DNA of 47,988 nt from a virus (IMGVR_UViG_2579778786_000004:1-47988); one strand, 5' to 3'. Positions 1 through 46,299 are shown, counted from the first letter of the stretch. Program-made: numbers and translations. The notes: a model not told the origin generated them from the letters alone.

Positions 1-933
1 ATGGACAACGACAAAATTGATCAACACAGCGACGAAATTGAAGTTGAGAGCGAAGAAAAAGAGCGCGGCAAAAAAATAGAAATAGATGAAGATCGACTCC
101 CCTCCCGGGCGATGGCAATTCATGAGCATATCCGCCAGGATGGTGAAAAAGAGCTGGAACGCGACGCAATGGCGCTACTGTGGTCAGCCATTGCGGCGGG
201 TCTGTCGATGGGCGCTTCGCTACTGGCAAAAGGGATATTTCATGTCGAACTGGAAGGAGTGCCAGGCAGCTTCTTACTGGAGAATCTCGGTTATACCTTT
301 GGTTTTATTATCGTCATTATGGCCCGCCAGCAATTATTTACCGAAAACACCGTGACTGCGGTACTACCCGTCATGCAAAAACCGACAATGAGCAACGTCG
401 GCTTACTTATGCGATTATGGGGCGTCGTGCTGCTGGGTAATATTCTCGGGACAGGTATTGCTGCATGGGCATTTGAATATATGCCTATCTTCAATGAAGA
501 AACTCGCGATGCATTTGTCAAAATCGGCATGGATGTGATGAAGAACACCCCCAGCGAGATGTTTGCCAACGCGATCATTTCCGGCTGGCTGATCGCCACT
601 ATGGTTTGGATGTTTCCTGCTGCGGGTGCGGCAAAGATTGTGGTGATTATATTGATGACCTGGCTTATTGCACTGGGTGACACCACCCACATCGTTGTCG
701 GTTCTGTTGAAATCCTCTATCTGGTGTTTAACGGCACGCTGCACTGGAGCGATTTCATCTGGCCCTTCGCACTACCTACTTTAGCGGGGAACATCTGCGG
801 CGGCACCTTTATCTTCGCGTTAATGAGTCATGCACAGATTCGTAACGACATGAGCAACAAGCGTAAAGCAGAAGCACGCCAAAAAGCAGAACGTGCGGAA
901 AACATTAAGAAAAATGATAAAAACCCAGCATAA
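1..933 (+). CDS. yfdC: Inner-membrane protein of the formate/nitrite transporter family (YfdC-like); host gene left of the prophage
   Basis: 310 aa ORF with hydrophobic multi-pass core and charged N and C termini; sits directly upstream of tRNA-Arg as yfdC does in E. coli K-12 (recalled). Confidence 0.75.
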   Translation: MDNDKIDQHSDEIEVESEEKERGKKIEIDEDRLPSRAMAIHEHIRQDGEKELERDAMALLWSAIAAGLSMGASLLAKGIFHVELEGVPGSFLLENLGYTFGFIIVIMARQQLFTENTVTAVLPVMQKPTMSNVGLLMRLWGVVLLGNILGTGIAAWAFEYMPIFNEETRDAFVKIGMDVMKNTPSEMFANAIISGWLIATMVWMFPAAGAAKIVVIILMTWLIALGDTTHIVVGSVEILYLVFNGTLHWSDFIWPFALPTLAGNICGGTFIFALMSHAQIRNDMSNKRKAEARQKAERAENIKKNDKNPA

Positions 934-1008
934 ATGGCGAGGGTTTAAGCAATCGAGCGGCAGCGTACTTACCCCGCAGTCCATTAGCGGGTATACTCAT
1001 GCCGCATT

Positions 1009-1083
1009 GTCCTCTTAGTTAAATGGATATAACGAGCCCCTCCTAAGGGCTAATTGCAGGTTCGATTCCTGCAGGGGACACCA
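1009..1083 (+). tRNA. argW: tRNA-Arg (anticodon CCU), integration target of the prophage
   Basis: 75 nt: GTCCTCT acceptor, anticodon loop CT-CCT-AA, T-arm GCAGGTTCGATTCCTGC, 3' ACCA. Confidence 0.9.
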
Positions 1084-1208
1084 TTTATCAGTTCGCTCCC
1101 ATCCGTACCAGTCCGCAAAATCCCCTGAATAGCAAGCCTTCCATAGATTCACAGTTCGTAATGGTTCGCGTCAGATCGTTGACAGCCGCACTCCATGACG
1201 GGTAAAAA

Positions 1209-2405
1209 GTGGATAAAATAATTTTACCCACCGGATTTTTACCCATGCTCACCGTTAAGCAGATTGAAGCAGCAAAGCCGAAAGAAAAACCATACCGCCT
1301 TCTCGATGGTAATGGCCTGTACCTTTATGTCCCTGTGTCAGGGAAAAAGGTATGGCAGCTTCGCTACAAGATTGACGGTAAGGAGAAAATCCTGACTGTC
1401 GGAAAATATCCGCTTATGACTTTGCAGGAGGCAAGGGATAAAGCATGGACTGCGAGGAAAGACATCTCGGTTGGCATAGATCCGGTAAAAGCGAAAAAGG
1501 CTTCGTCTAACAACAACTCCTTTAGTGCCATTTACAAGGAATGGTACGAGCACAAGAAGCAAGTGTGGTCTGTAGGGTATGCGACTGAACTTGCCAAAAT
1601 GTTTGATGACGACATTTTACCCATCATCGGCGGTCTCGAGATTCTGGATATTGAGCCGATGCAACTGCTGGAAGTAATCCGCAGATTTGAAGATCGCGGT
1701 GCAATGGAGCGAGCCAACAAAGCCCGCAGAAGATGCGGCGAGGTTTTCCGTTACGCTATTGTCACTGGTAGGGCTAAATATAACCCGGCACCTGACCTTG
1801 CTGACGCCATGAAGGGATACCGCAAGAAAAACTTCCCGTTTCTTCCTGCAGACCAGATCCCGGCATTTAACGAAGCACTGGCAACATTTTCAGGAAGCAT
1901 CGTATCGCTCATTGCGACCAAGGTTTTACGCTATACAGCCCTAAGAACGAAAGAGCTTCGTTCCATGCAATGGAAGAACGTCGATTTTGAAAACAGGATT
2001 ATCACCATCGACGCCAGTGTGATGAAGGGTCGCAAAATTCATGTGGTTCCTATGTCAGACCAGGTGGTTGAACTTCTCACTACGCTAAGCTCAATCACTA
2101 AACCAGTATCAGAGTTTGTTTTTGCCGGTCGCAACGATAAGAAGAAGCCAATCTGCGAGAACGCGGTATTGCTTGTGATCAAACAAATCGGCTATGAGGG
2201 TCTGGAAAGCGGTCACGGATTCAGGCATGAATTCAGCACAATTATGAACGAGCACGAATGGCCTGCTGACGCTATTGAAGTGCAACTGGCACATGCCAAC
2301 GGCGGATCTGTGCGCGGTATTTACAACCATGCGCAGTATCTCGATAAGCGCAGAGAAATGATGCAGTGGTGGGCTGATTACATCGATGGTCGTGCAGGAG
2401 TGTAA
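1209..2405 (+). CDS. intS: Tyrosine recombinase / phage integrase (IntS-like); alternative start at 1245 (MLTVKQIEAAK)
   Basis: 398 aa; N-terminal motif typical of P4-type integrases, C-terminal catalytic region with R...H..R...Y (HANGGSVRGIYNHAQY); adjacent to tRNA. Confidence 0.85.
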   Translation: MDKIILPTGFLPMLTVKQIEAAKPKEKPYRLLDGNGLYLYVPVSGKKVWQLRYKIDGKEKILTVGKYPLMTLQEARDKAWTARKDISVGIDPVKAKKASSNNNSFSAIYKEWYEHKKQVWSVGYATELAKMFDDDILPIIGGLEILDIEPMQLLEVIRRFEDRGAMERANKARRRCGEVFRYAIVTGRAKYNPAPDLADAMKGYRKKNFPFLPADQIPAFNEALATFSGSIVSLIATKVLRYTALRTKELRSMQWKNVDFENRIITIDASVMKGRKIHVVPMSDQVVELLTTLSSITKPVSEFVFAGRNDKKKPICENAVLLVIKQIGYEGLESGHGFRHEFSTIMNEHEWPADAIEVQLAHANGGSVRGIYNHAQYLDKRREMMQWWADYIDGRAGV

Positions 2406-2409
2406 GCCA

Positions 2410-3441
2410 TTACGCGAATTCTTCCACGATCGCCATGCCAGTAGCACCATCACCACCGGTAAATGCCGTACCGGTAAACCCAAGGTCATACGCGCCACCA
2501 CCACCGGATCCGGGAGCTGCGCCAGCAATACCGGCCTGAGAACCCGCCCGGCCACCGCCGCCAAAATACGACGCCCCGCCGTTGCCCGTCAGAAGGCTTG
2601 AGCCTGTCTGTCCATCTGAGCCGGTACCACCGTTGATCCTGATATCTCCGGTCGCCGCCGTACCTCCGTCGCCGCCGGCGGTATTGGACACGCCTGACTT
2701 CACTCCTCCTTTCCCGCCAGGAGCTGAGAACAGGCTGGCAAACGAGGTAGCACCACCATCCGCACCACTTACTGCGCCAACTCCGCCCTTACCACCCTTG
2801 CCGACAGTAATCGCGTAAGAACTGGCAGCAGACAGGTCAACCCATACGATAATGGTCGCACCCGCGCCGCCGCCGGCACCGGAAAAGGTTTCGGTGTTAT
2901 TAGATGCCTGGCATCCGCCACCGCCGCCGCCACCTCCGACCAACGTTACTTTTGCATAACGGGCCAGAGGAGAGCGCGTATAGGTGCCGTTTGCATAGAA
3001 CGCTTTTGGAGCGCCAAGAGAACGCCCGACAAAACCAGAGGAATCAGATATTCCGAGGTTATAACGGGCTTCATTTACCGCATCATCACCGGCATCTTTA
3101 ATTTCTGACAGGTTATTACTGATCTGCAGGAACGATAACAATGATCCGGCTGTCATTAGATTCGCGACAATGTCATTTGTTGACCATACGCGCGCCGTAG
3201 TTCCTTCCTGACCACGAATTACTGTCATCACGTCACCGGATACAGACGTGACGTGCATAATTTCAGAAATTGTTTTCGTGGCCGCGTCGGTTATCGTTAA
3301 TTTGAAATAACTCTGCCCTGATACAGGGGAAGGGAATAAAGCCCCCGCTCCAGTTCCCACGGTAATAACGGTAGCGGACGCGCTAATACCCGCAGCGAGA
3401 ACACTCTTTGCGTTATTATTGGCTAATAGCTTAAGCGCCAT
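2410..3441 (-). CDS. Glycine-rich tail-fibre-like protein (paralog of the fibre at 8291-9076)
   Basis: 343 aa; C-terminal half dominated by GGxGG repeats ending VEEFA, same architecture as the C-terminus of the 8291-9076 fibre (ends YLEEFS). Confidence 0.55.
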   Translation of the reverse strand: MALKLLANNNAKSVLAAGISASATVITVGTGAGALFPSPVSGQSYFKLTITDAATKTISEIMHVTSVSGDVMTVIRGQEGTTARVWSTNDIVANLMTAGSLLSFLQISNNLSEIKDAGDDAVNEARYNLGISDSSGFVGRSLGAPKAFYANGTYTRSPLARYAKVTLVGGGGGGGGCQASNNTETFSGAGGGAGATIIVWVDLSAASSYAITVGKGGKGGVGAVSGADGGATSFASLFSAPGGKGGVKSGVSNTAGGDGGTAATGDIRINGGTGSDGQTGSSLLTGNGGASYFGGGGRAGSQAGIAGAAPGSGGGGAYDLGFTGTAFTGGDGATGMAIVEEFA

Positions 3442-3785
3442 ATATACCCCAGTTAAATAATAGAATTATCAGAACGAACATCGCAGATAGTAAATGTCAC
3501 GACGCCGATGACAGTAACATCGTCCAGGGCTTCACCCTCGATCGCTTCACCATCTTCGGTAATCAGCGACCTTCCTCTCAGCGTGGATGCCTCGCCGGCG
3601 CAGCGCGGTAATGAAGTCGCGGGTGTGAAGGTACTGGAACCCCTTGGAACTGCGCAAAACTGACTCGCGGAAAGCCGCGGCGATGTCTGAATGCCTAAAC
3701 ATGATCTGCCCTTCGATAAACACTGTATTCATATACAGTGGTTTTAAACAGGAAGCAGATCAAGCAGGCTAACAACTGCTATGCG

Positions 3786-4589
3786 TTAAACAATTATGCC
3801 TCGGCGCAGGGCATAGCTTTGAATGTACGCATACATGGAGGCCTCTTCCGCATTCGTCAGCGCTCTGTCCCAGAGCATTGCCAGCATGATCTCCGTTGTT
3901 GCTACCGTAGTCCCAGATGGTCCACGCGTACCAATACGGAGAGTGGCGGTGTTGCGCAGGTCACGAACGTTACCCGATACCAGTGCCTGTGAAGCCTGCG
4001 TGCTCTTGGTGAGGTTTTTTACATAACGGTTGCCGGCGGTTCCTGAAACACCCGTCCCGTCGATTTTCCCCAAAATAGCCCTCCACCAGGTGTCATCTGC
4101 CGCTGCAAGAGAGGTTGGAAGTCCAGACTCTGCAGTTAATACAGCAGAGTTAGCGTTCGATGCGGTTCCGGCGACACCGGTATAGGATGCGCCAACCATT
4201 TGCTGCGTGCCGACAGCCTCAAATACGATACCGCAACCTTGTGCCGTTACCGAGTTACCGCTTTCAGTAATGACATTGTTAAAGTTGGTAAATAGCGGCA
4301 GGCGAACAGTTTGAGGGGCATATATTTTGGCAACAACAATCATCGTTGGGTTTGCCATTTCAGCAATATTAGTGTCGATATAATTGGTTAATGACAGCTG
4401 GGAACTATATTCCGTTACGTGATTTGGTGTTCCTACAATGGTGGGCTGGACTCCGCCAGCCACCTGGTTTACCCATAATCCTTTAGAGCCACCAAACCAC
4501 ACTCCAAGCAGGCCATCCATAACAGGAACATTAATGCCCATTGAAAAAGACTGAGCATTTACATTTTTTCCAATAATTACTGCACCCAT
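3786..4589 (-). CDS. Hypothetical protein, coupled to the upstream esterase-domain gene
   Basis: 267 aa ORF; start codon overlaps stop of the 4592-6925 gene (ATGGGTGCAGTAA context); no recognisable motif. Confidence 0.5.
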   Translation of the reverse strand: MGAVIIGKNVNAQSFSMGINVPVMDGLLGVWFGGSKGLWVNQVAGGVQPTIVGTPNHVTEYSSQLSLTNYIDTNIAEMANPTMIVVAKIYAPQTVRLPLFTNFNNVITESGNSVTAQGCGIVFEAVGTQQMVGASYTGVAGTASNANSAVLTAESGLPTSLAAADDTWWRAILGKIDGTGVSGTAGNRYVKNLTKSTQASQALVSGNVRDLRNTATLRIGTRGPSGTTVATTEIMLAMLWDRALTNAEEASMYAYIQSYALRRGIIV

Positions 4590-4591
4590 TT

Positions 4592-6925
4592 TTAGGCCTC
4601 TTCAGTAGCTGTAATAATGTCAGCGCCGCACCAGTTTTGCAGTGCGTACGGTTTACCATTTAGTTCAGAAATTGATTCTGCTGCTGGCGAGCCGGTTACC
4701 AGTTCCCACTTATATGTTGATAATGAGTCGTCACTATCAGCGATATTGTGAACGCCAGAATGATAGGTTTTATCTCCAAGCCAAATATTTACCGGAGCAA
4801 CCAGTTTTCTTGATGCGACAATTTTAACTACCACGTCAGAAGCTAATGTCACGGTCAAATCTGAACCATACAAAACCCCCTGCGCATCTTTTATGGTAAA
4901 ACCTTTATCGGCAAAACTTGTTGCCACATTTCCTACATATCCGGGAGTAAATTTAACTGGAGGGACGGGAACCGAAAAAGCTATGTTAACTGTATCTTCT
5001 CTAAAAATAGCCTCGCGCATGCGAAAAACTGGCCTTCCGCATCCCCTTTGCACTAAATCCATAACCTTGCCTGCATCGCATCCAAACCAGCGATATGAAT
5101 TAGCAAACATGTGGTTGTCGTTGCCATCAGGATTCACTGGTTTTGGCAAATGTCCCACCGGATTAACAAATGTCGCCAAGCCTGGATTATTGTCGCAGAA
5201 ATCAAGAAGTGCGCGAGACACCGCCATTGAATTTGAATCAGAGGTATACGTGCCACCCGGTTGATAATTATACCAGTGCGGTGGCAGTGTCTGACCAAAA
5301 ATAGCCATCCCATCCGTGCAAATGTTGTTATAAAGCGTATTTAATGCAGTCATATATGCATCGTACGCCGTTGAACCATCGTTCTCGCCCTGCATCCACA
5401 TGAAGCCACAAAAGCGCGATGTCTTTCCTGCAGCATCTGCTGCGGCTTTAATAGCCTGAAGCGCGGTAATTACGTGATTATAGAAGTTGGGAGTCGCTCC
5501 TTTACTGAGCTGCGCGATGGTCTTTCCCCCAACACCACAACATGCGCCGGCAAAGATTCGCGACGAATCATTATCGACCATCAACCGCTGGTTATGCAGC
5601 AACTTACCGAAGTTAAGCCAGCCAGAAAGCGGGGTTTCACCGAAACTACCGGATGAAGGGCTGAGAGTGCCATCATCTAGCTGTCGCACCTCAATTAAGT
5701 TATTGAGATTGCTGTTTCCTACCGGGCCAAACTGATCTGATGTCGTGCCGCTAACGTAATTAGAGCCTCTCGGAGAATTGCCAAGCATCAGGTTCCCGAA
5801 CATGTTCAATACAGAGAGAGGCACCTGGCTATTCGTTCCGACAGAAAAAGACTGTCCATAAACAATATATATGTTTATATCTGCTGTCGGCATCTGTGTC
5901 AGGTAATAACGCTGCCGAATTGCCCCAGCGACCAGAGATAGAGAGTTGTTAGCTATTCTTGCTACAGAATCGGTGCCTGAAACCTCACCATCAACCCTAA
6001 TTTTCGTCTGGAGTTTGAAGTCTTTAGTTAACCTAAGAAAAACAATCCCGTCAGGGTCCTGCATTGTAATAATGTCAGAGCTATTCCCATCAACATAGAA
6101 CCTAATGGCACTTGACTCAATGCCAATATTGTTCCCAAGCATAGAGACAATTTGTTGTATCCAGTCATATTTAACTGTAATACCTAAACCTTTAGCCACT
6201 CCATTATTGAAGCTGGCGAGAATGCGACCATCCTCATCCTGAACAGAAAACCCATCCTCTGTAACTTTAAAAAAAGAAAAAATGGCATTTTCAAGCAACT
6301 CAGGCATAAGAGATACTTTGCTTGTTTTAAACCCTACCCCGCTATCATCCTCTTCTACTTTGGCAGCAATAAATCCGTCTTCATCGCAAAAATCAATAAG
6401 AGTTTCACTGTCTCCATTTTGATAAATGCTTTCTGCTACAGAATCGGCTTTCACTTTTGCCTCATCAACTGCAGCCTGTGACGGCATTTTCCTCCCGGTA
6501 GGTTCCAGGGTCCCTCCGTTATTAATAACTTCAATAGCCAGCGCGCTATCATCCGGGCTGCGGTAATACGTGGCGCTTCCTGTCGGAATATTAGCAATAT
6601 CTGCCTGTGCATCAGCAAGCGTCATGTATTGCTTGCTCAGAGGGATCAGGTTTTGGCGGGCTTCATCAATAACAGCGTCGGTAGCAGCTGCCATTTTTTT
6701 AGTAGCCCCAGTCATCGTATCCCGGGCGTTACCAAAACGATCTATAAAAGTATCGCTTTCGCTGTTCAGGAAATCATCGTACGCCAGGGCGTTATCATTC
6801 AGATCCTTCATGCTATTTGAAGGTCTTGGATTGCCGGTATTATATCTTTTGTCCATACCTGTTCCTGTCTTCATCTTTTCAATGAAGCAATTAAGATTGA
6901 CGCCCCGCCCCTTCAGGGCTAACAT
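4592..6925 (-). CDS. Large prophage protein with carbohydrate O-acetylesterase (SASA/SGNH, DUF303-like) domain, resembling prophage NanS-p-type esterases; likely true start at 6856 (MDKRY, RBS AGGAACAGG)
   Basis: 777 aa; central motifs GQSFSVG and WMQGENDG match the sialate-O-acetylesterase-type signature (GQSN..G / W.QGE.D); located next to tail fibre genes. Confidence 0.6.
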   Translation of the reverse strand: MLALKGRGVNLNCFIEKMKTGTGMDKRYNTGNPRPSNSMKDLNDNALAYDDFLNSESDTFIDRFGNARDTMTGATKKMAAATDAVIDEARQNLIPLSKQYMTLADAQADIANIPTGSATYYRSPDDSALAIEVINNGGTLEPTGRKMPSQAAVDEAKVKADSVAESIYQNGDSETLIDFCDEDGFIAAKVEEDDSGVGFKTSKVSLMPELLENAIFSFFKVTEDGFSVQDEDGRILASFNNGVAKGLGITVKYDWIQQIVSMLGNNIGIESSAIRFYVDGNSSDIITMQDPDGIVFLRLTKDFKLQTKIRVDGEVSGTDSVARIANNSLSLVAGAIRQRYYLTQMPTADINIYIVYGQSFSVGTNSQVPLSVLNMFGNLMLGNSPRGSNYVSGTTSDQFGPVGNSNLNNLIEVRQLDDGTLSPSSGSFGETPLSGWLNFGKLLHNQRLMVDNDSSRIFAGACCGVGGKTIAQLSKGATPNFYNHVITALQAIKAAADAAGKTSRFCGFMWMQGENDGSTAYDAYMTALNTLYNNICTDGMAIFGQTLPPHWYNYQPGGTYTSDSNSMAVSRALLDFCDNNPGLATFVNPVGHLPKPVNPDGNDNHMFANSYRWFGCDAGKVMDLVQRGCGRPVFRMREAIFREDTVNIAFSVPVPPVKFTPGYVGNVATSFADKGFTIKDAQGVLYGSDLTVTLASDVVVKIVASRKLVAPVNIWLGDKTYHSGVHNIADSDDSLSTYKWELVTGSPAAESISELNGKPYALQNWCGADIITATEEA

Positions 6926-6933
6926 CGCCTTAC

Positions 6934-7221
6934 GTGTTTAAACGGTTAAATAAGAGAATGATTTTAATAAATAAATACACCCCTCCAACGCAGGAAGATT
7001 TAGCCAGACTGAAATCCGCACTAAATTACTCCGGAAACCAAATGGCAGGGCTCGCAGGTGTAGCCAGCGATAGCCAATGGCGGAAATACACTGGCGGAGA
7101 GAGCCCCAGGGTAATGTCAAGACACATACTGTTTTATATTGCAGCTCAGCTTGTTCTGTCTGATGAGCAACTTAACAATGTAATAAATAAAATGCGCGAT
7201 ATTGGCGCGGAGATAAAATAA
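6934..7221 (+). CDS. Small putative helix-turn-helix protein, coupled to the downstream acyltransferase
   Basis: 95 aa; segment GNQMAGLAGVASDSQWRKYTGG resembles an XRE-type HTH; stop overlaps the ATG of the next gene (TAATG). Confidence 0.4.
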   Translation: MFKRLNKRMILINKYTPPTQEDLARLKSALNYSGNQMAGLAGVASDSQWRKYTGGESPRVMSRHILFYIAAQLVLSDEQLNNVINKMRDIGAEIK

Positions 7222-8312
7222 TGCTTGGCCTAATAAGGTTTTTTTTGGCATCGTGCGTCATTGCTTTTCACTTAACGGCTCGCATACCTGCACTTGGCAA
7301 CTTTGCAGTGAATTGCTTCTATGTTATTAGTGGTTTTTTAATAACATACATTTTGCATGAAACATACAAGTTCAACTTCTCTATGTTTTGGAAAAATAGA
7401 ATACTGAGGTTATTTCCGGCATATATATTTTTTCTCGTCATGGGCTTTCTTATTATAAAATTAATTCCATCCGCAAAGGAATTCCACTCAAACTGGACAG
7501 GCAATTTCTTACTTGGAGATTTATTAGGAAACATCTTAATCTTCCCCTGGGCTTTCCTTTCTGATAATGCTGTAGCAAATCCATTCGGTGCCTTTTCATC
7601 CATTTATCACTTTGCTATTGATGGTAATAGATTCAGAATAGTCACATCATCATGGTCAGTGGGTGTTGAGATAACATGTTATTTTTTGTTGTGGCTTTTC
7701 ATAGCCCGAAATAAATTTACAGCCATTACGTCGATTCTGCTTTCACTGCTTTATCATGCTTACGTATATGTAGTACACCATTCTTTTGATATGGCGTATT
7801 TCCCATTCCTTGCTGCAACACTTCCTTTTAGCATGGGTTCTCTGGGTTATTTTTCCCATAGAAAATTCAAAGCTATGTATCTTTCTCCACACAAAGCTTT
7901 TTTAATAACATTTATTTGCATCGGGATTTTTATTACCAATTGGCATTTATATACAATTAATGCATTAGGTCAGCACAACATAATACTTTACTACACCAAT
8001 AATGTAATAGCATTGTTTACAACCCTGGTATTATTAAAAATAAAGACAAACATACATCTTGAGAAAATACTCAAGTGGTTTGGTGATCTGGCCTATCCAA
8101 TTTTTCTTTGTCAATATTTTGGTGGATTTCTAGCATGGCTTGCTATTGGTGGTGAAAATCGTGGCTTATCCATCTTTTTATTAGGCTACCCAATATCAAT
8201 TGCACTTGGGATCGTTTGTGTAATATTAATAGACAAGCCACTAATTAAAATTAGAGCAAAAATAAGGGCGGACGCTCAAAGCAAAAATAATCAGGAAAAC
8301 TCTTCAAGGTAA
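7221..8312 (+). CDS. Integral-membrane acyltransferase family 3 (O-antigen/polysaccharide O-acetyltransferase-like, Oac/OafA type)
   Basis: 363 aa, about 10 predicted TM segments; N-terminal FH and FYVISGFLITY...RILRLFPAY motifs typical of acyltransferase-3; markedly AT-rich compared with neighbours. Confidence 0.75.
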   Translation: MLGLIRFFLASCVIAFHLTARIPALGNFAVNCFYVISGFLITYILHETYKFNFSMFWKNRILRLFPAYIFFLVMGFLIIKLIPSAKEFHSNWTGNFLLGDLLGNILIFPWAFLSDNAVANPFGAFSSIYHFAIDGNRFRIVTSSWSVGVEITCYFLLWLFIARNKFTAITSILLSLLYHAYVYVVHHSFDMAYFPFLAATLPFSMGSLGYFSHRKFKAMYLSPHKAFLITFICIGIFITNWHLYTINALGQHNIILYYTNNVIALFTTLVLLKIKTNIHLEKILKWFGDLAYPIFLCQYFGGFLAWLAIGGENRGLSIFLLGYPISIALGIVCVILIDKPLIKIRAKIRADAQSKNNQENSSR

Positions 8313-9076
8313 ACTAAACCATTCGCTCCTTTTCCTGATGAATAGTTACCATTCCCCCCGGCACCACCTGAGCCGGGGAAACCGCCATTATCGCCAGAAC
8401 TACTGAAGTGGCCATTGCCACCTGTTGATGAAAATGCAGATCCTCCAGTCCCGCCAATAAAAGCATCAGAACCATAATACAGACCACCTTGAGATATTCC
8501 GCCAGTAACATTTAAAATGTTCCCGCCACTTCCGATACCTCCAGCAGGAGCTGTAGCCCCGCCACCACTCCCTCCAGTAGCTGAGATTAAACTTCCGAAC
8601 CTTGTATCACCACCATTCCCGCCTTTAGACGAGACACCAGCAGCAACAGCACTGCCACCAGTACCTATCGTCACAGATATAGTTTCTTTATCAGAAATAT
8701 TAAATAACCCTTCCGAAAATCCACCAGCACAACCTCCAGATGCGCCCACACTAACTGGAGCATTCTGGCCACCTCCCCCCGCTCCCCAAACTTTCACCCG
8801 CACTCTTTTCGTCCCTTTAGTTGGAGTGTAAGTCCCTGACTTAGTAAAGGTGACAATATTAAGCAGGCGACCGCCACCAATCGCTTTAAGAACCTGTGAA
8901 TCATCATCAGGATCAAGCTCAAGCCCCGAGCCCTCAACAACGTTTACCAGCTCACGCTGAAAGGTATTCATCATCTCAGCATTAATTATTGTCGGTGAAA
9001 TACCATTAGCGACATTACCATTAGTGTATTCACCATTAGCATCAGCGGTGTCAGTTGTACTGCCAACTTTTCTCAT
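8291..9076 (-). CDS. Tail fibre protein with glycine-rich C-terminal domain
   Basis: 261 aa; N-terminal ISPTIINAEMMNTFQRELVNVV fibre-attachment-type motif, Gly-rich C-terminus; directly downstream of the baseplate genes. Confidence 0.7.
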   Translation of the reverse strand: MRKVGSTTDTADANGEYTNGNVANGISPTIINAEMMNTFQRELVNVVEGSGLELDPDDDSQVLKAIGGGRLLNIVTFTKSGTYTPTKGTKRVRVKVWGAGGGGQNAPVSVGASGGCAGGFSEGLFNISDKETISVTIGTGGSAVAAGVSSKGGNGGDTRFGSLISATGGSGGGATAPAGGIGSGGNILNVTGGISQGGLYYGSDAFIGGTGGSAFSSTGGNGHFSSSGDNGGFPGSGGAGGNGNYSSGKGANGLVYLEEFS

Positions 9077-9102
9077 ATAAACCTTCTTTTTAAATGTCTG
9101 AA

Positions 9103-9777
9103 TTAAACGTAACCGGAAGCGATATCAAATATTCTGGCAAACTCAGGCGTGACTTCGTAAACCCCCTCATCGTTAAAACCGAAATAGATATAGCCGAATT
9201 TGACCAGGGTGTATGAGGGGGCGAGGGCATTAATCCGGCATTCAAGCTGACGATTACCCCAGGAACGTAATGGATCGCCACAATAACTCAGACCTGCACG
9301 GGCATAAGTTATCGTTGTGTCTTCCGCCTCTACCAGCCAGACAAATGGCCAGTCATCCCCATTTAGCCCGTCACCACATACCGATAAGCCAGCACGCGCC
9401 TGCCGGTATTCCTTAATCGAAATCGTATAACCCATTGCTGCGGCAATACTGATGAAATAGCTCTTTGACTGCCCGCCGGTGCTGATGAGTTTCGATACAA
9501 TGGCAGACTGACGCTTCGCAATCGTATCCACTTCGCCAATTGAGCAATCATCAGGTAAGCCGAGTGTTTTTTCCCACTCGGTGAGCATAATCGTCGCAGT
9601 TTTTGGAAAGGCACCGCGCAGCAATGCGAGTGCGTCGTTATCACTACGCTGGAAACTGGCCGCAATGGCCCGCAGTACAGCAGCCTGAACAGCTTTTGGA
9701 TCCCGTGTCCACGCTCGGCCGGTGGGGATAAGCGCCTGCAGTGCCTTCTGATAATCGTCTGTTGAGAAAAGGCTCAT
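9103..9777 (-). CDS. Mu gp48-like tail/baseplate protein (DUF2313 / YmfQ-like)
   Basis: 224 aa; position between baseplate J-like gene and tail fibre, as in Mu-like tail modules. Confidence 0.65.
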   Translation of the reverse strand: MSLFSTDDYQKALQALIPTGRAWTRDPKAVQAAVLRAIAASFQRSDNDALALLRGAFPKTATIMLTEWEKTLGLPDDCSIGEVDTIAKRQSAIVSKLISTGGQSKSYFISIAAAMGYTISIKEYRQARAGLSVCGDGLNGDDWPFVWLVEAEDTTITYARAGLSYCGDPLRSWGNRQLECRINALAPSYTLVKFGYIYFGFNDEGVYEVTPEFARIFDIASGYV

Positions 9778-10922
9778 GTGTAGTTCACCTCACCACGAAC
9801 AGCCAGCTCCCCAACTCCCGGCTCAATATTCGCAGAAGGCGACACAAGGATATAACCTGAAGTACCGGCAACATCCCCTATCGCACGGTTGAGATCTGAA
9901 AGGTAAATTTTCCCTGTGCCGAGCGGGTTAGCGGATTCAAACAATACCCCGTCAATCGCATCCGCAATGGCCGCAGTCGTTGCGCTGTCGGCATCAGATA
10001 TCCCGCTTATTTCAAAATCGATAACGCGTTCGATGGGAGAGCAGACATAGTTAAGGGAGGTAACCGGCGCAAGCGGATACATATAATCGGCAACTCTCCC
10101 CTGATCCCCGGTGGCTTTTACAGCCCCCCACTCTTCCAGTTGAGAGACACCGTCAGTTCCTACAGGGAATCCATGATTGGTTTTATCATCGCCGTCGCAC
10201 ATGATGTAAATCACCACGGTACCCGGCCCCATCCCCCGGCGCCGTATCCATGCCCTGGTGATCCCCGACACGGATAAAGCCCAGCTTTTATAATCAGTGT
10301 CACTCCCTCCCTGCGGGGGATTCTGATACGCCAGCAGACCACGTAATCGGAAATCCTCTTCACTTTCAATGTTAGCGCCGCCGGTGGCAGGCTCAATCAG
10401 CGTGACCGAGCTGTCTATGCCGGGGGCATTAGCATCCAGTGTAAGAATGGTGCCAGCATCGGCATTTCCGGAAGCGCCTCCTCCTGTCACATCGTCTGTG
10501 ATATCCGGCAAAACCGCTGTTACGGCGACCGTCGCACTGCCAGTGGTATTTATCGTTATGGCGTCATCGGTTATGTACTGGTAACCATCATCACGGTTTA
10601 ACACAGCCCCTTTTGACAGTGTTTTTCCCGGTGTTCCGGTAACTTTCGCCGCCGGAGAGCGTGCTGCCGTTGCGGCTTTTCGGTAAATCTGCTTTAGCGC
10701 CATCCATCCGGCAAGCCACTCATCGGTAGAGGTGAAAGGCGTGCTCTGACGGGCAATATAATCCAGGTAGGCGTAGTGCAGATGGGCCATGCCCGCATCC
10801 ATATCAGCGAGCACCTTAAGGTTGCCAAACCGTAACAACGCGCCAACACTTTCAAGCTCTGCCTGCATAAACTGGCGATTCTCCTGCCGGAGCTCGCTCA
10901 GTGTTTTCCGCTTAAATGGCAT
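9774..10922 (-). CDS. Baseplate J-like protein (Mu gp47-like)
   Basis: 382 aa; gene order and overlapping start/stop with neighbours typical of the Mu baseplate operon. Confidence 0.7.
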   Translation of the reverse strand: MPFKRKTLSELRQENRQFMQAELESVGALLRFGNLKVLADMDAGMAHLHYAYLDYIARQSTPFTSTDEWLAGWMALKQIYRKAATAARSPAAKVTGTPGKTLSKGAVLNRDDGYQYITDDAITINTTGSATVAVTAVLPDITDDVTGGGASGNADAGTILTLDANAPGIDSSVTLIEPATGGANIESEEDFRLRGLLAYQNPPQGGSDTDYKSWALSVSGITRAWIRRRGMGPGTVVIYIMCDGDDKTNHGFPVGTDGVSQLEEWGAVKATGDQGRVADYMYPLAPVTSLNYVCSPIERVIDFEISGISDADSATTAAIADAIDGVLFESANPLGTGKIYLSDLNRAIGDVAGTSGYILVSPSANIEPGVGELAVRGEVNYT

Positions 10923-11361
10923 TATTCAGTTGCTCCCATAGCCAGAAGAATTTGAACTCCTGCCAGTCCCCCGTCGGCGGCAAATACCGGATGATGAGGT
11001 TCAGCCTGTTCGGGAAAACAATCTCTGACTGAGCCTCTATCGCTGCTGCAATACCATCCGACTTCATCCAGGCCAGAGCCTCTTCGGCGTAATCTTCAGC
11101 TCTCATCGCCACTTCGCGCGTCAGTTTTTCACGCCGCAGTAGCCACAGCCTTGAGCCAATATTCCGGTCGTTGTCCAGATCCCCCCACCAGCCGCGGCGG
11201 TCAGTTCCTTCATAATCATCATCAGCGCGCGCCAGTCCGTCAGTAAACAAACTGATAATAATGGCCGTGTGCATATCATTCTCAGATGTCAGTAAGCCGT
11301 TACCGGTTTGCCAGTCAGCATGAATGGCATCCACATCCCAGAATGAGGAAATATCACTCAT
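10912..11361 (-). CDS. Phage GP46-family baseplate protein (Mu gp46-like)
   Basis: 149 aa; conserved position between V-like spike and J-like genes. Confidence 0.65.
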   Translation of the reverse strand: MSDISSFWDVDAIHADWQTGNGLLTSENDMHTAIIISLFTDGLARADDDYEGTDRRGWWGDLDNDRNIGSRLWLLRREKLTREVAMRAEDYAEEALAWMKSDGIAAAIEAQSEIVFPNRLNLIIRYLPPTGDWQEFKFFWLWEQLNNAI

Positions 11362-11939
11362 ACCTGACTCTCTGTTTTTTCGCTTGTGATCGTGCTATCG
11401 CCGGACTGAACTTCTTTAACGTCATGGTCATGATCGTTGTGAGCATCCCGCAGCGCTTTGAGCGTTGAATTGTTCGTCTCGCAGTTATCGATGATGTCAC
11501 CCGTCACCAGGAGTTTGGGGGTAACCAGCTTTACCTGTTCCGTTGCCGTCGCGGTGATGTTTCGGGCATTGTTGATCTCTACATCTTTGCCTTTCGCATC
11601 AATGAAAATTCCCGCCTCAGTCAGATGAATATTCATCCCCTGCTGGTTATAGACCACCGTTTCGCCTGGCTTAAGCCCGGTATGCCGGTAGCTTTGATGG
11701 TTAGAGGCAATGACGACGGGACTGGAGCGGTCCCCGCCGAGAAAGGCAATAACCACATCCGATCCCGCCGGCAACCCCGATGAAAAACCAAAATCAGAGA
11801 GCCGTGGGGCGCTGGCCACTTCCAGCGGTGTCTGGTACTGGATTTCCTGCACAACCCCGCTATCTTTCTGCGTGGTAATACGGCCAATGCCCAGCATGCC
11901 GGCGATGCGCGTGGCCGATTTCTTTAAATTTTGATTCAT
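11358..11939 (-). CDS. Baseplate assembly/spike protein (Mu gp45 / gpV-like)
   Basis: 193 aa; position and size in the Mu-like baseplate operon. Confidence 0.6.
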   Translation of the reverse strand: MNQNLKKSATRIAGMLGIGRITTQKDSGVVQEIQYQTPLEVASAPRLSDFGFSSGLPAGSDVVIAFLGGDRSSPVVIASNHQSYRHTGLKPGETVVYNQQGMNIHLTEAGIFIDAKGKDVEINNARNITATATEQVKLVTPKLLVTGDIIDNCETNNSTLKALRDAHNDHDHDVKEVQSGDSTITSEKTESQV

Positions 11940-13021
11940 TGGTTTAGTCCGGGTATTTGCTGGTAGAAAGCATAAGGCTGGACAGCGAAAGCCTCCGGGG
12001 GCATCAGATAAAGGCGCGCATGGGTGCCGTCACTGTCTCTGATATAAGTCACCTCTGCGATAAGCAATTCGGTGTCAGGCAGCTGCAGACTCGGGATGTT
12101 GACCGGGATAAGCGTATTCGGCTCCCATAATTTCCCGGATTTATCGCGCCAGGAATCAATCGTCACCGTTAACTGACGGGAACGGCCGTATCGGCGGTTC
12201 ATCTCCCAGTCAATCGCTCGCTGAGCCTGTTGTGAAGCCATCAGTGTACTTTCAACAATAATGATCCGTTTTCGGTAACGCATACTGGCCGCCTCAGGAT
12301 CGCGGGCCGTCGCCAGCGTCACCGAATCATAAGCCGTATCTGGCGAGAATCCTGCAATCGGCGAAATGCTCATCGATACGCCGACGTAATCAGAAAAGCG
12401 GTCAGCCATCGAACGGCGGTAATAAGCCTGTTCGATATTTACCCCTTCTGCGATACCGCTGGCCGCGCGCTTTGTCCCCACCCTGGTCAGAAATAAGTTA
12501 CCGTCAGGCTGATCGTAATAAAGCAATGCCGACCAGCGGGAGACACGATCAAGTATTTCCTGTGGCGATTCCCCCCAGTTCAGGGAAAATTGCGGAACTT
12601 TCACCAGATCATCAACGTCTGTACTTACACCAATGTTGTAATGGGATGCGAGGCGGGAGGCAATATCAAGCGCATTACTGTTATTGATGACGTTATTTGG
12701 CCATTCAGCAGAGCAATCAACGAGATCTGCGCACTTACTGCGGCCTGAGGCTCTGACTTCATGGCGCGAACGGGAAATAGCAGGCGACCAGTCATCAACA
12801 TACCCCGTCACCACCAGGTCGTTACCAAGCTTTACCTGACAAGGCATCCCTTCCTTTACCAGCTGCTTCTGGTCACTTCCCGGAAAATAATCCATCAGTC
12901 CCAGGTCAAAATCGGAGGGAAAACGCTCAATGCCACGGGTCACCCGCACAGAGTCCCATCCTTCAATGATTTTTCCGCCCACTATCAGGGAGACAATATC
13001 CTGATCATTATCCGTACTCAT
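11936..13021 (-). CDS. Baseplate hub / tail protein (Mu gp44 / gpP-like)
   Basis: 361 aa; follows DNA-circulation-like gene as in Mu. Confidence 0.6.
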   Translation of the reverse strand: MSTDNDQDIVSLIVGGKIIEGWDSVRVTRGIERFPSDFDLGLMDYFPGSDQKQLVKEGMPCQVKLGNDLVVTGYVDDWSPAISRSRHEVRASGRSKCADLVDCSAEWPNNVINNSNALDIASRLASHYNIGVSTDVDDLVKVPQFSLNWGESPQEILDRVSRWSALLYYDQPDGNLFLTRVGTKRAASGIAEGVNIEQAYYRRSMADRFSDYVGVSMSISPIAGFSPDTAYDSVTLATARDPEAASMRYRKRIIIVESTLMASQQAQRAIDWEMNRRYGRSRQLTVTIDSWRDKSGKLWEPNTLIPVNIPSLQLPDTELLIAEVTYIRDSDGTHARLYLMPPEAFAVQPYAFYQQIPGLNQ

Positions 13022-30779: not shown

Positions 30780-30855
30780 TGGTGCTGTTTAACGGACTTG
30801 AACCGCTACCCATTCGCTTACAAGGCGACCGCTCTATCATTGGAGCTAAAACAGC
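30780..30855 (-). tRNA. Phage-encoded tRNA-Thr (anticodon UGU)
   Basis: 76 nt cloverleaf by hand: perfect 7 bp acceptor stem GCTGTTT/AAACAGC, D-stem GCTC/GAGC, anticodon loop CT-TGT-AA, T-loop TTCAAGT, 3' ACCA; D-loop lacks GG. Confidence 0.6.
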
Positions 30856-30860
30856 ATGTT

Positions 30861-30935
30861 TGGCGGGACAGCGTGGACTCGAACCACGATAAGAAGGTTA
30901 ACAGCCTTCCGTAATGACCTTTATACGACTGACCC
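30861..30935 (-). tRNA. Phage-encoded tRNA-Asn (anticodon GUU), one T-T mismatch in acceptor stem
   Basis: 75 nt: anticodon stem GAAGG/CCTTC, loop CT-GTT-AA identical to E. coli tRNA-Asn loop, T-arm CGTGG-TTCGAGT-CCACG, 3' GCCA. Confidence 0.6.
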
Positions 30936-45967: not shown

Positions 45968-46010
45968 TGCCTGATTTGCAGGTTCGATTCCCTATTCGGA
46001 GATAGCACTC

Positions 46011-46211
46011 ATGCAACACGAACTACAGCCTGATTCACTGGTTGATTTGAAATTCATCATGGCTGATACTGGCTTTGGTAAAACCTTCATCTATGACCGG
46101 ATTAAGTCCGGCGACCTGCCAAAAGCCAAAGTTATCCACGGTCGAGCAAGATGGTTATATCGTGACCATTGTGAATTCAAAAATAAGCTCTTAAGCCGCG
46201 CCAATGGGTAA
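46011..46211 (+). CDS. torI: Excisionase / recombination directionality factor, AlpA family (TorI-like)
   Basis: 66 aa; matches E. coli TorI as recalled; sits immediately inside attR. Confidence 0.8.
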   Translation: MQHELQPDSLVDLKFIMADTGFGKTFIYDRIKSGDLPKAKVIHGRARWLYRDHCEFKNKLLSRANG

Positions 46212-46284
46212 AATAGCGGGTAAAATATTTCTCACATCTAAAAAACACCATTCCAATCAATCCCCTGCTGCTTCAAGTAGATGT

Positions 46285-46299
46285 CTGCAGGGGACACCA
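46285..46299. repeat. attR core (CTGCAGGGGACACCA), direct repeat of the argW 3' end at 1069-1083
   Basis: Exact 15 bp identity with the tRNA 3' acceptor end including CCA. Confidence 0.7.

Follow-up and report, generated by a model that had tools for sequence, protein, structure and literature searches.

A glycine-rich short tail fibre beside the integrase of an argW prophage, probably an imported receptor-binding protein

The integrase end of this prophage raises a simple question: what is a glycine-rich protein of 343 residues (Gly343) doing beside intS, when a second glycine-rich protein of 261 residues (Gly261) already lies next to the baseplate genes? An earlier note on this DNA had described the two as paralogs and the integrase-side copy as detached from the tail operon, and had offered an alternative receptor-binding protein, a remnant of module exchange and a non-virion protein as its possible identities. 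We analysed the whole stretch of 47,988 nucleotides (IMGVR_UViG_2579778786_000004), here called the window, and compared its left part with cultured phages, solved virion structures, viral contigs and complete E. coli genomes.

The prophage and its two glycine-rich proteins

The left end of the window holds yfdC (1-933), the tRNA-Arg(CCT) gene argW (1009-1083, plus strand; ARAGORN), whose final 15 nucleotides form the attL core (1069-1083), and the IntS integrase gene intS (1209-2405, plus strand), recognized by its Pfam integrase domains. These 15 nucleotides recur at 46285-46299 as attR, which gives a prophage length of ~45.2 kb. Since this IntS-type integrase gene stands between the attachment site and the neighbouring fibre gene, integrase and fibre are linked in both the phage and the prophage states. 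The Gly343 ORF was confirmed at 2410-3441 on the minus strand with its reading frame intact. It is convergent with intS and is the last gene of the late strand. Gly343 passes PF21722 (Gly_rich_2) with 56.9 bits (4e-15) over model positions 7-224 of 226, the curated gathering threshold being 24.3 bits, and its PHROG matches (phrog_863, phrog_6202 and phrog_454) all belong to the tail category.

Upstream of Gly343 on the minus strand lie a decayed spacer of ~345 nt (3442-3785), the gene for a 267-aa protein (phrog_4390; 3786-4589) that is always found 3' of this type of esterase, and an SGNH/SASA acetyl-esterase tailspike gene (4592-6925; PF03629; tail-fibre phrog_4201, 5e-153). A cassette on the plus strand, antisense to these genes (6934-8312; PF01757; phrog_3333 and phrog_6705), encodes a 95-aa ORF and an Acyl_transf_3 protein resembling an O-antigen acetylase; this cassette is what splits Gly261 from the esterase. 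What sets the two glycine-rich genes apart is the acyltransferase cassette together with the genes for the esterase and its 267-aa partner. The 3' neighbour of Gly343 is intS, and that of Gly261 is the antisense acyltransferase. The Gly261 ORF was likewise confirmed, at 8291-9076 on the minus strand. Its gene directly follows that of the Mu gp48-like wedge protein (9103-9777; PF10076, 5.5e-31), upstream of which lie Baseplate J (9774-10922; PF04865, 5.8e-53) and the gp46 and gp45 genes, all on the minus strand, making the baseplate one of the Mu gp45-48 type. Gly261 is the baseplate fibre of this prophage. Its N-terminus (8867-9076, minus strand) matches the N-termini of fibre PHROGs 1858, 2617, 6859 and 1833, and its receptor-binding domain (8291-8866, minus strand) passes PF21722 with 42.9 bits (7.7e-11) over model positions 3-223.

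The direct resemblance of the two proteins is weak by BLASTP (33% identity over 96 aa, E 1e-4), and a shared wealth of glycine could in principle have produced it. The match is collinear from end to end, however, running from an 'F..GTYT' entry strand to an '..EEF' C-terminal strand. When the glycine-rich part of Gly261 was shuffled 1000 times, the shuffles averaged 112 +/- 12, and none of the 1000 reached the observed Smith-Waterman score of 229 (z = 9.9). An HMM of Gly343 homologues from which the query had been left out gave Gly261 96.6 bits, against a maximum of -10.7 bits for 500 composition-preserving shuffles. These two tests rule out a compositional artefact, and the alignment that the earlier note had proposed as a check thus reveals conserved, collinear similarity. 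Judged by alignment and profile, the C-terminal domains are homologous members of PF21722. The N-termini (residues 1-105 of Gly343 and 1-70 of Gly261) are unrelated and match different tail-fibre PHROGs, so that the picture of one glycine-rich module carried on two different N-termini is borne out.

A fibre in three parts

Gly343 opens with an N-terminal fibre attachment domain, anchor A (aa 1-105; 3127-3441, minus strand). By phmmer it matches residues 7-101 of PDB chain 8jov_1, a 'putative tail fiber protein' (E 1.8e-9) that accounts for 18 chains of the entry; we take 8jov to be the portal-tail complex of the Ralstonia podophage GP4. Anchor A is 58% identical to the N-terminus of a Felix-type 872-aa esterase tailspike (E 3e-33). 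At 75-97% identity it also heads proteins with Collar (PF07484), gp53-like (PF21882) and fibre-repeat C-termini, and it is found on annotated tail fibres of cultured Yersinia, Pantoea, Burkholderia, Ralstonia and Escherichia phages. These matches contradict the earlier statement that only the baseplate-adjacent protein has a baseplate-type N-terminal motif. The AlphaFold (AF2) monomer model of anchor A has a pLDDT below 50.

Anchor A gives way to a neck (aa 106-140; 3022-3126, minus strand) that is predicted to be helical, AF2 placing helices at aa 88-128; a segment of the neck weakly matches the 'NNLSEIK' segment of Mu fibre S (E ~0.1). The remainder is a receptor-binding domain (aa 141-343; 2410-3021, minus strand), which hmmsearch and Foldseek identify as a TNF-like beta-sandwich with a polyglycine lattice. 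AF2 models it with a pLDDT above 90. Its profile matches the fibre of cyanophage Pam3 (7ypx/7yfw) with E 5e-11, and the top Foldseek match of its model is 7ypx_A (E 5e-9, probability 1.00). Tail-tip chains of Bxb1 (9d93) come next, followed weakly by the TG domain of ALK/LTK (E 2e-3 to 2e-2, probability 0.5-0.96). The TM-score of this last match is only ~0.2, and we claim no membership for a eukaryotic receptor ectodomain. Long glycine runs occur at aa 168-177 (VGGGGGGGGC) and aa 311-318 (GSGGGGAY). Among 35 homologues, column entropy is 0.73 at glycine positions, which are conserved, versus 2.01 at the variable non-glycine positions.

The closest cultured counterpart is gp33 of Klebsiella phage RothD (proposed Felixviridae, genus Nakavirus), a short tail fibre whose polyglycine-rich domain is described as rare and which is classed as a receptor-binding protein (PMC12629751). 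The two proteins have the same three-part build and the same glycine-rich receptor-binding fold. Their residues 1-101 are 97% identical, whereas overall identity is 54%, the neck and receptor-binding domain having diverged; identity collapses beyond aa 101, which marks a module swap point at about that residue. In RothD the tailspike gene and two further genes lead to a 79-aa gene and a UmuD-like gene, then to gp33 and the integrase. The window has the same order from the 79-aa gene to the integrase, except that the 79-aa and UmuD-like genes are truncated here by a 304-bp deletion. In Klebsiella phage vB_Kpn_Chronis, gp26 is likewise the final late gene, next to the integrase, and the Chronis-type domain is 37% identical to that of Gly343. 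The tail of RothD and Chronis is of Felix type, whereas the prophage that carries Gly343 has a Mu-gp48-type baseplate instead. Gly343 is therefore hardly detached from the tail operon, as had been supposed: it is co-oriented with the late genes and is the last of them, as its counterparts are in RothD and Chronis.

The fold is best understood from Pam3 gp24, which combines a TNF-like sandwich with a lattice of glycine-rich strands and whose variable distal tips are the proposed receptor-binding surface (PMC9608196). As in Gly343, its structures (PDB 7YPX and 7YFW) have a TNF-like domain, a lattice of the GGGGxGG type and variable loop tips, although the Foldseek-aligned sequences are only ~25% identical. 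Gly261 is a near full-length counterpart of Pam3 gp24 (7ypx residues 54-284, E 1e-3, phmmer). Pam3 gp24 attaches to the baseplate by a long helix at its N-terminus and depends on a chaperone, gp25, encoded next to it. Gly343 has predicted helices at aa 88-128, but these are preceded by the 105-aa anchor A, which Pam3 gp24 lacks, and it has no adjacent chaperone gene: none of the genes neighbouring Gly343 or Gly261 is of the Caudo_TAP, Tfa or Pam3 gp25 type. A positional analogue of Gly343 is the side tail fibre Stf of lambda, which is long and served by the chaperone Tfa and to which no relationship in sequence was seen.

Two further systems illuminate how such a domain may work. TFP_Y, the gp24 homologue of Klebsiella myophage SCNJ1-Y, has been shown to bind LPS and, once a depolymerase has acted on the capsule, to set off DNA ejection, and its host-range mutations map to the glycine-rich domain (PMC12671077). 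Likened by description, TFP_Y and its polysaccharide-degrading enzyme are the best functional model for the pairing of a glycine-rich fibre with an esterase; SCNJ1-Y is lytic, however, and TFP_Y is its single baseplate fibre, which places it nearer to Gly261 than to Gly343. The adhesin gp38 of Salmonella phage S16 (PDB 6F45) is a polyglycine sandwich with hypervariable loops for receptor recognition (PMC9608196, PMC12629751). In contrast to Gly343, it sits as an adhesin at the tip of the long fibre gp37 and has no TNF-like domain, and it is absent from the Foldseek matches of Gly343.

Arrival by recombination, and the spread of anchor A

Nucleotide similarity records how Gly343 came to this prophage. 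By blastn, window positions 1-3586 and 3583-6396 are 97-99% identical to the Felix-type argW prophage of E. coli elppa10, and positions 6479-12500 match, at 98%, the prophages of E. coli HS and XYEH3314. These two lie at other chromosomal sites and lack Gly343. The mosaic junction falls at ~6396-6479, inside the esterase tailspike gene. On these nucleotide identities, the left arm of the window derives from a Felix-type argW prophage, and the module exchange and recombination junction anticipated by the earlier note are plainly there. Recombination inside the esterase gene, and not duplication of Gly261, would have brought in attL, intS, the Gly343 fibre, the 267-aa gene and the esterase C-terminus, to be joined to a recipient with a Mu-like tail. 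Fourteen contigs encode a protein identical to Gly343; most are elppa10-type argW prophages, and a single assembly shows the hybrid layout of the window. An example of this layout is the assembly of locus L008 (GCA_000503275.1). The elppa10/Chronis type, in which sheath, hub and J-like wedge are present, corresponds to the proposed Felixviridae, given that one census locus is named in the Felixviridae paper as a close relative of RothD.

The esterase itself carries the marks of this exchange. Its true start is probably M24 at 6856, followed by anchor B (residues 24-110; 6596-6856), a conserved segment (6416-6595) and the enzymatic part. Residues 177-777 are ~99% identical to the Felix-type (elppa10-type) 872-aa esterase in its L007 copy. 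The N-terminus, anchor B, is of HS type, and it matches PDB 9occ_G, 'putative tail protein gp13', with E 2e-10. A distant kinship of anchors A and B would have accounted for their common contexts, but hhalign gave a probability of 0.1 and we abandoned the idea. The conserved segment of ~60 aa after the anchor (residues 111-170 of the window esterase) is common to all large tailspikes. The Acyl_transf_3 cassette is also found in the HS and XYEH3314 prophages. The 267-aa protein, which has no PDB sequence match, finds no support as a partner of Gly343; it co-occurs with this type of esterase, not with the anchor-A fibre.

The spacer was resolved by blastn against four loci (L001, L003, L005 and L006), by translation and by PHROG and NCBIfam matches. 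It holds the 3' remnant of a HumD/UmuD'-like gene (3453-3586), the scar of the 304-bp deletion (~3583-3586) and the 5' remnant of the 79-aa gene (phrog_3893), and the ORF at 3547-3732 is a fusion remnant. We considered the two small genes as fibre chaperones and discarded the idea: one of them is HumD/UmuD'-like, and both are truncated here and in Felix-type prophages with an identical fibre.

To place the fibre among its relatives we scanned IMG/VR with anchor A, which gave 55 loci, and assigned tail types by tblastn with reference proteins. Felix-type tails account for 28 loci, DUF2612/Wedge1 myophages for 11 and lambda-like siphophages (NlpC plus an 825-aa tip protein) for eight; the other eight are too short for classification of the tail. 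A Mu-gp48-type baseplate was found in none of the 55. Among close relatives, taken as those whose anchor A is at least 80% identical, no gene separates the anchor-A gene from the integrase or the end of the contig, and the 79-aa and UmuD-like genes usually stand ahead of it. A first glycine-rich fibre after the wedge is also present in nine of the 11 Wedge1-type loci, so a layout with two glycine-rich fibres is recurrent and not peculiar to the window; it is seen in complete genomes as well. Among 5426 complete E. coli genomes, the gene is present in 70 and the whole 12-kb hybrid arrangement, Mu-type tail plus Gly343, in none.

The fibre is intact in most of the 55 viral loci, including seven of the eight siphophage-type loci and all eight Wedge1-type loci whose terminal gene lies fully inside the contig (three more are cut by the contig end). 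Three copies are disrupted (L027, in a siphophage context, and L032 and L039, of unclassified context), none of them in a recognized Felix-type context. Compared with 15 distinct close alleles, Gly343 has a dN/dS of 0.06-0.12, indicating purifying selection, with 0.00-0.07 in the anchor and 0.06-0.18 in the tip. Different receptor-binding tips sit on anchor A in every tail context, and the fibre variants do not group by tail type: identity between copies taken from different tails is 96-100%, one Wedge1-context copy being identical to a Felix-context copy and one siphophage-context copy 96% identical to a Felix-context one. Variants have thus been exchanged so often among tail types that no single context can be credited with the constraint, and we do not use dN/dS as proof of function on non-native tails, for which it is uninformative.

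Could the two glycine-rich genes nonetheless be a true pair of paralogs, one duplicated from the other in this phage lineage and later given a new N-terminus? They share a Pfam domain and a strand and lie ~5 kb apart, but we regard a local duplication as extremely improbable. Their receptor-binding domains are only 38% identical to each other. That of Gly343 comes closer, with 50-53% identity, to first-position fibres from DUF2612/Wedge1-type myophages, and that of Gly261, with 47-51%, to fibres of other lineages. The two genes sit on mosaic blocks with different nearest relatives, and each occurs without the other, Gly261 in HS-type prophages and Gly343 in Felix-type ones. The word paralog, in the sense of a local duplicate, is therefore best dropped: as these comparisons indicate, what the two proteins have in common is only an ancient receptor-binding fold. 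The domain of Gly343 is only 37% identical to those of other terminal fibres bearing anchor A, and the pattern of identities clearly points to receptor-binding tips having been shuffled among anchors and positions.

What Gly343 may do on this tail

The homology and fold of Gly343, its modular anchor and intact frame, the mosaic junctions that flank its arrival, purifying selection and its recurrent terminal position underlie the explanation that we favour: Gly343 is probably an imported short tail fibre of three parts with the role of a receptor-binding protein, the counterpart of RothD gp33. The integrase-side copy looks like the receptor-binding protein that had been suggested as one option, combining a Pam3 gp24-type domain with a fibre anchor. 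Anchor A (residues 1-105) would attach the fibre, with the helical neck (~106-140) carrying the glycine-rich tip (141-343), whose variable loop tips may contact a surface saccharide such as LPS. By analogy with TFP_Y, the acetyl-esterase would process O-antigen and the glycine-rich fibres would engage LPS, so that LPS or O-antigen is the presumptive ligand of Gly343. We expect the protein to be trimeric and to be expressed late. Whether the virion of this prophage also takes it up, which would add a third receptor binder to Gly261 and the esterase, is a closer call, on which we lean only slightly towards incorporation. Against it stand the 304-bp deletion upstream, a lack of promoter signal above chance, the missing adjacent chaperone gene and the low-confidence AF2 model of anchor A.

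The crucial issue is docking. The most serious competing explanation, to which we give appreciable but lesser weight, is that the fibre works in its native Felix-type phage and is an orphan here: dragged in by recombination, locked to intS in both states and too recent to have decayed, it would find nothing to dock to on the Mu-like baseplate. The native setting of anchor A is the Felix-type baseplate; distant relatives and Yersinia myophages carry the anchor-A fibre directly after Felix-type baseplate genes of 472, 234 and 225 aa, and tblastn found no homologue of the Felix-type baseplate proteins in the window. The esterase exchanged its anchor from A to B, and Gly343 kept anchor A. The full layout of Mu-type tail plus Gly343 is missing from the 55 viral loci and the 5426 complete E. 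coli genomes alike, none of the three disrupted copies is in a recognized Felix-type context, and Felix-type and hybrid prophages share one and the same 343-aa sequence, so a useless copy would not yet have decayed. Yet intact fibres also stand behind siphophage and Wedge1 tails, where Felix baseplate genes are likewise wanting, and these non-Felix tails make up ~40% of classified loci, a great deal for a useless gene. Anchor A bears diverse tips in every one of these contexts, and its relatives serve on podophages and other myophages. The ~60-aa tailspike segment could offer anchor A a piggy-back site, although HS-type phages carry this segment without any anchor-A fibre. Taken to its limit, this idea would turn the integrase-linked anchor-A fibre into a universal plug-in that binds receptors for four or more unrelated tails (Felix, DUF2612/Wedge1, Mu and lambda-like siphophage), docked perhaps to the tailspike segment common to those phages and not to the baseplate. 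We consider so general a role unlikely; if it were real, an integrase and a host-range determinant would travel as one portable cassette.

A role outside the virion, as a moron or lysogenic-conversion product such as a surface or exclusion factor with a glycine-rich fold, is very improbable. The gene does adjoin the integrase and accessory genes (HumD/UmuD'-like and the 79-aa ORF) and not baseplate genes, and a weak promoter-like site lies at 3494-3465. Promoter and terminator signals around Gly343 are at or below chance, however, with eight promoter-like sites found versus 12.3 expected. The N-terminus is a conserved fibre anchor, common to tailspikes and a solved virion fibre, and swappable receptor-binding tips on a single anchor are typical of tail fibres. 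The RothD homologue is classed as a receptor-binding protein (PMC12629751), a reading of Gly343 as a defence protein finds no match in PADLOC, and NCBIfam gives a non-virion role no support either. The non-virion option of the earlier note accordingly goes unsupported, and an imported short tail fibre remains our preferred identification.

Much about this protein is already known: its fold is solved, PGAP gives its gene the product name 'glycine-rich domain-containing protein', and its closest cultured homologue is published as a short tail fibre. For annotation, Gly343 should be named a short tail fibre over its full frame of 343 aa, and the glycine-rich pair should not be recorded as a duplication. 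What is less usual is only that its anchor may be mismatched to this tail, or compatible with it against expectation. The prophage probably has three receptor binders, namely a glycine-rich fibre at the baseplate, an acetyl-esterase tailspike and a terminal glycine-rich fibre, in addition to an O-antigen acetylase-like gene, which makes it a useful case for seeing how host-range modules are combined and exchanged in temperate coliphages. The hybrid is a natural test of a fibre anchor on a foreign tail type, and as such it bears on the engineering of phage host range.

Prophage ends and the history of the fibre block

The 15-nt 3′ end of a tRNA-Arg (CTGCAGGGGACACCA) lies at 1069-1083 and is repeated at the right end at 46285-46299; this repeat marks attL and attR and delimits a prophage of ~45.2 kb. 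Just inside attR, a small open reading frame (ORF) at 46012-46212 looks, from our reading of its sequence, like a putative AlpA/Xis-type excisionase. A second, partial tRNA repeat occurs at 45976-45991. Genes for tRNA-Thr(TGT) and tRNA-Asn(GTT) are carried within the prophage on the minus strand (30780-30935).

Two of the loci that we compared record an earlier state of the block containing Gly343, the 343-amino-acid glycine-rich short tail fibre (2410-3441, minus strand). In L005 (~8001-8087) and L039 (2931-3014), the integrase is of the lambda type, and 28 codons left over from the 3′ end of IntS still separate it from the Gly343 gene. The block was thus formerly linked to IntS, and replacement of the integrase came later.

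The spacer upstream of Gly343 (3442-3785) is decayed and bears the scar of a 304-bp deletion at ~3583-3586, as referenced against loci L001, L003, L005, and L006. Two genes were truncated by the deletion, a 79-amino-acid gene (phrog_3893) at its 3′ end and a HumD/UmuD′-like gene (phrog_3469) at its 5′ end, and the ORF at 3547-3732 is a fusion remnant of the two. An identical 345-nt gap is present in the Felix-type prophages (elppa10-like argW prophages) that carry an identical Gly343 fibre. Judging from this gap, they share the deletion, which is therefore older than the hybrid in which a Felix-type left arm was joined to an HS-type part with a Mu-like tail.

Start sites of the fibre and esterase genes

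RefSeq/PGAP calls the Gly343 homologues at L001 14410-15441 and L072 9001-10032 as proteins of 272 amino acids from Met72, which loses most of the N-terminal attachment domain (anchor A, residues 1-105). The complete 343-codon frame is open in these homologues, and codons 1-110 of the Gly343 gene have a dN/dS of ~0.00-0.07.

For the SGNH/SASA acetyl-esterase tailspike (4592-6925, minus strand), the mechanical ORF begins at the ATG at 6925 and encodes 777 amino acids. This start, and with it the stretch 6856-6925, is probably wrong: every homologue begins at Met24 (6856; 754 amino acids), as does the gene annotated in L008, a locus with the same hybrid layout.

Tailspike architecture and the acyltransferase cassette

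Residues 111-170 of the esterase (6416-6595) form a ~60-amino-acid segment kept across large tailspikes at 50-84% identity, in a comparison with homologues in L002, L005-L007, and L012-L015. The tailspikes that share it vary in N-terminal anchor (A, or the unrelated B of the window esterase), in tail type, and in enzymatic domain (SGNH esterase, BNR_4, or other). A 267-amino-acid protein (phrog_4390; 3786-4589, minus strand) follows this esterase type in every case: the window, elppa10, HS, XYEH3314, strain 300081, and Chronis (gp24). Sequence comparison of this protein with Pfam and PDB returned no match; candidate roles include those of a chaperone and a lectin.

Within the late gene block, directly adjoining the esterase, two genes run antisense (6934-8312, plus strand): a 95-amino-acid ORF and an Acyl_transf_3 gene that resembles O-antigen acetylases. 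The 3′ ends of the acyltransferase gene and of Gly261, the baseplate-adjacent glycine-rich fibre gene, overlap by 22 nt (8291-8312), and the cassette recurs in the prophages of Escherichia coli HS and XYEH3314. Since an acyltransferase stands beside an acetyl-esterase, the prophage may be able to add as well as remove acetyl groups on surface polysaccharide.
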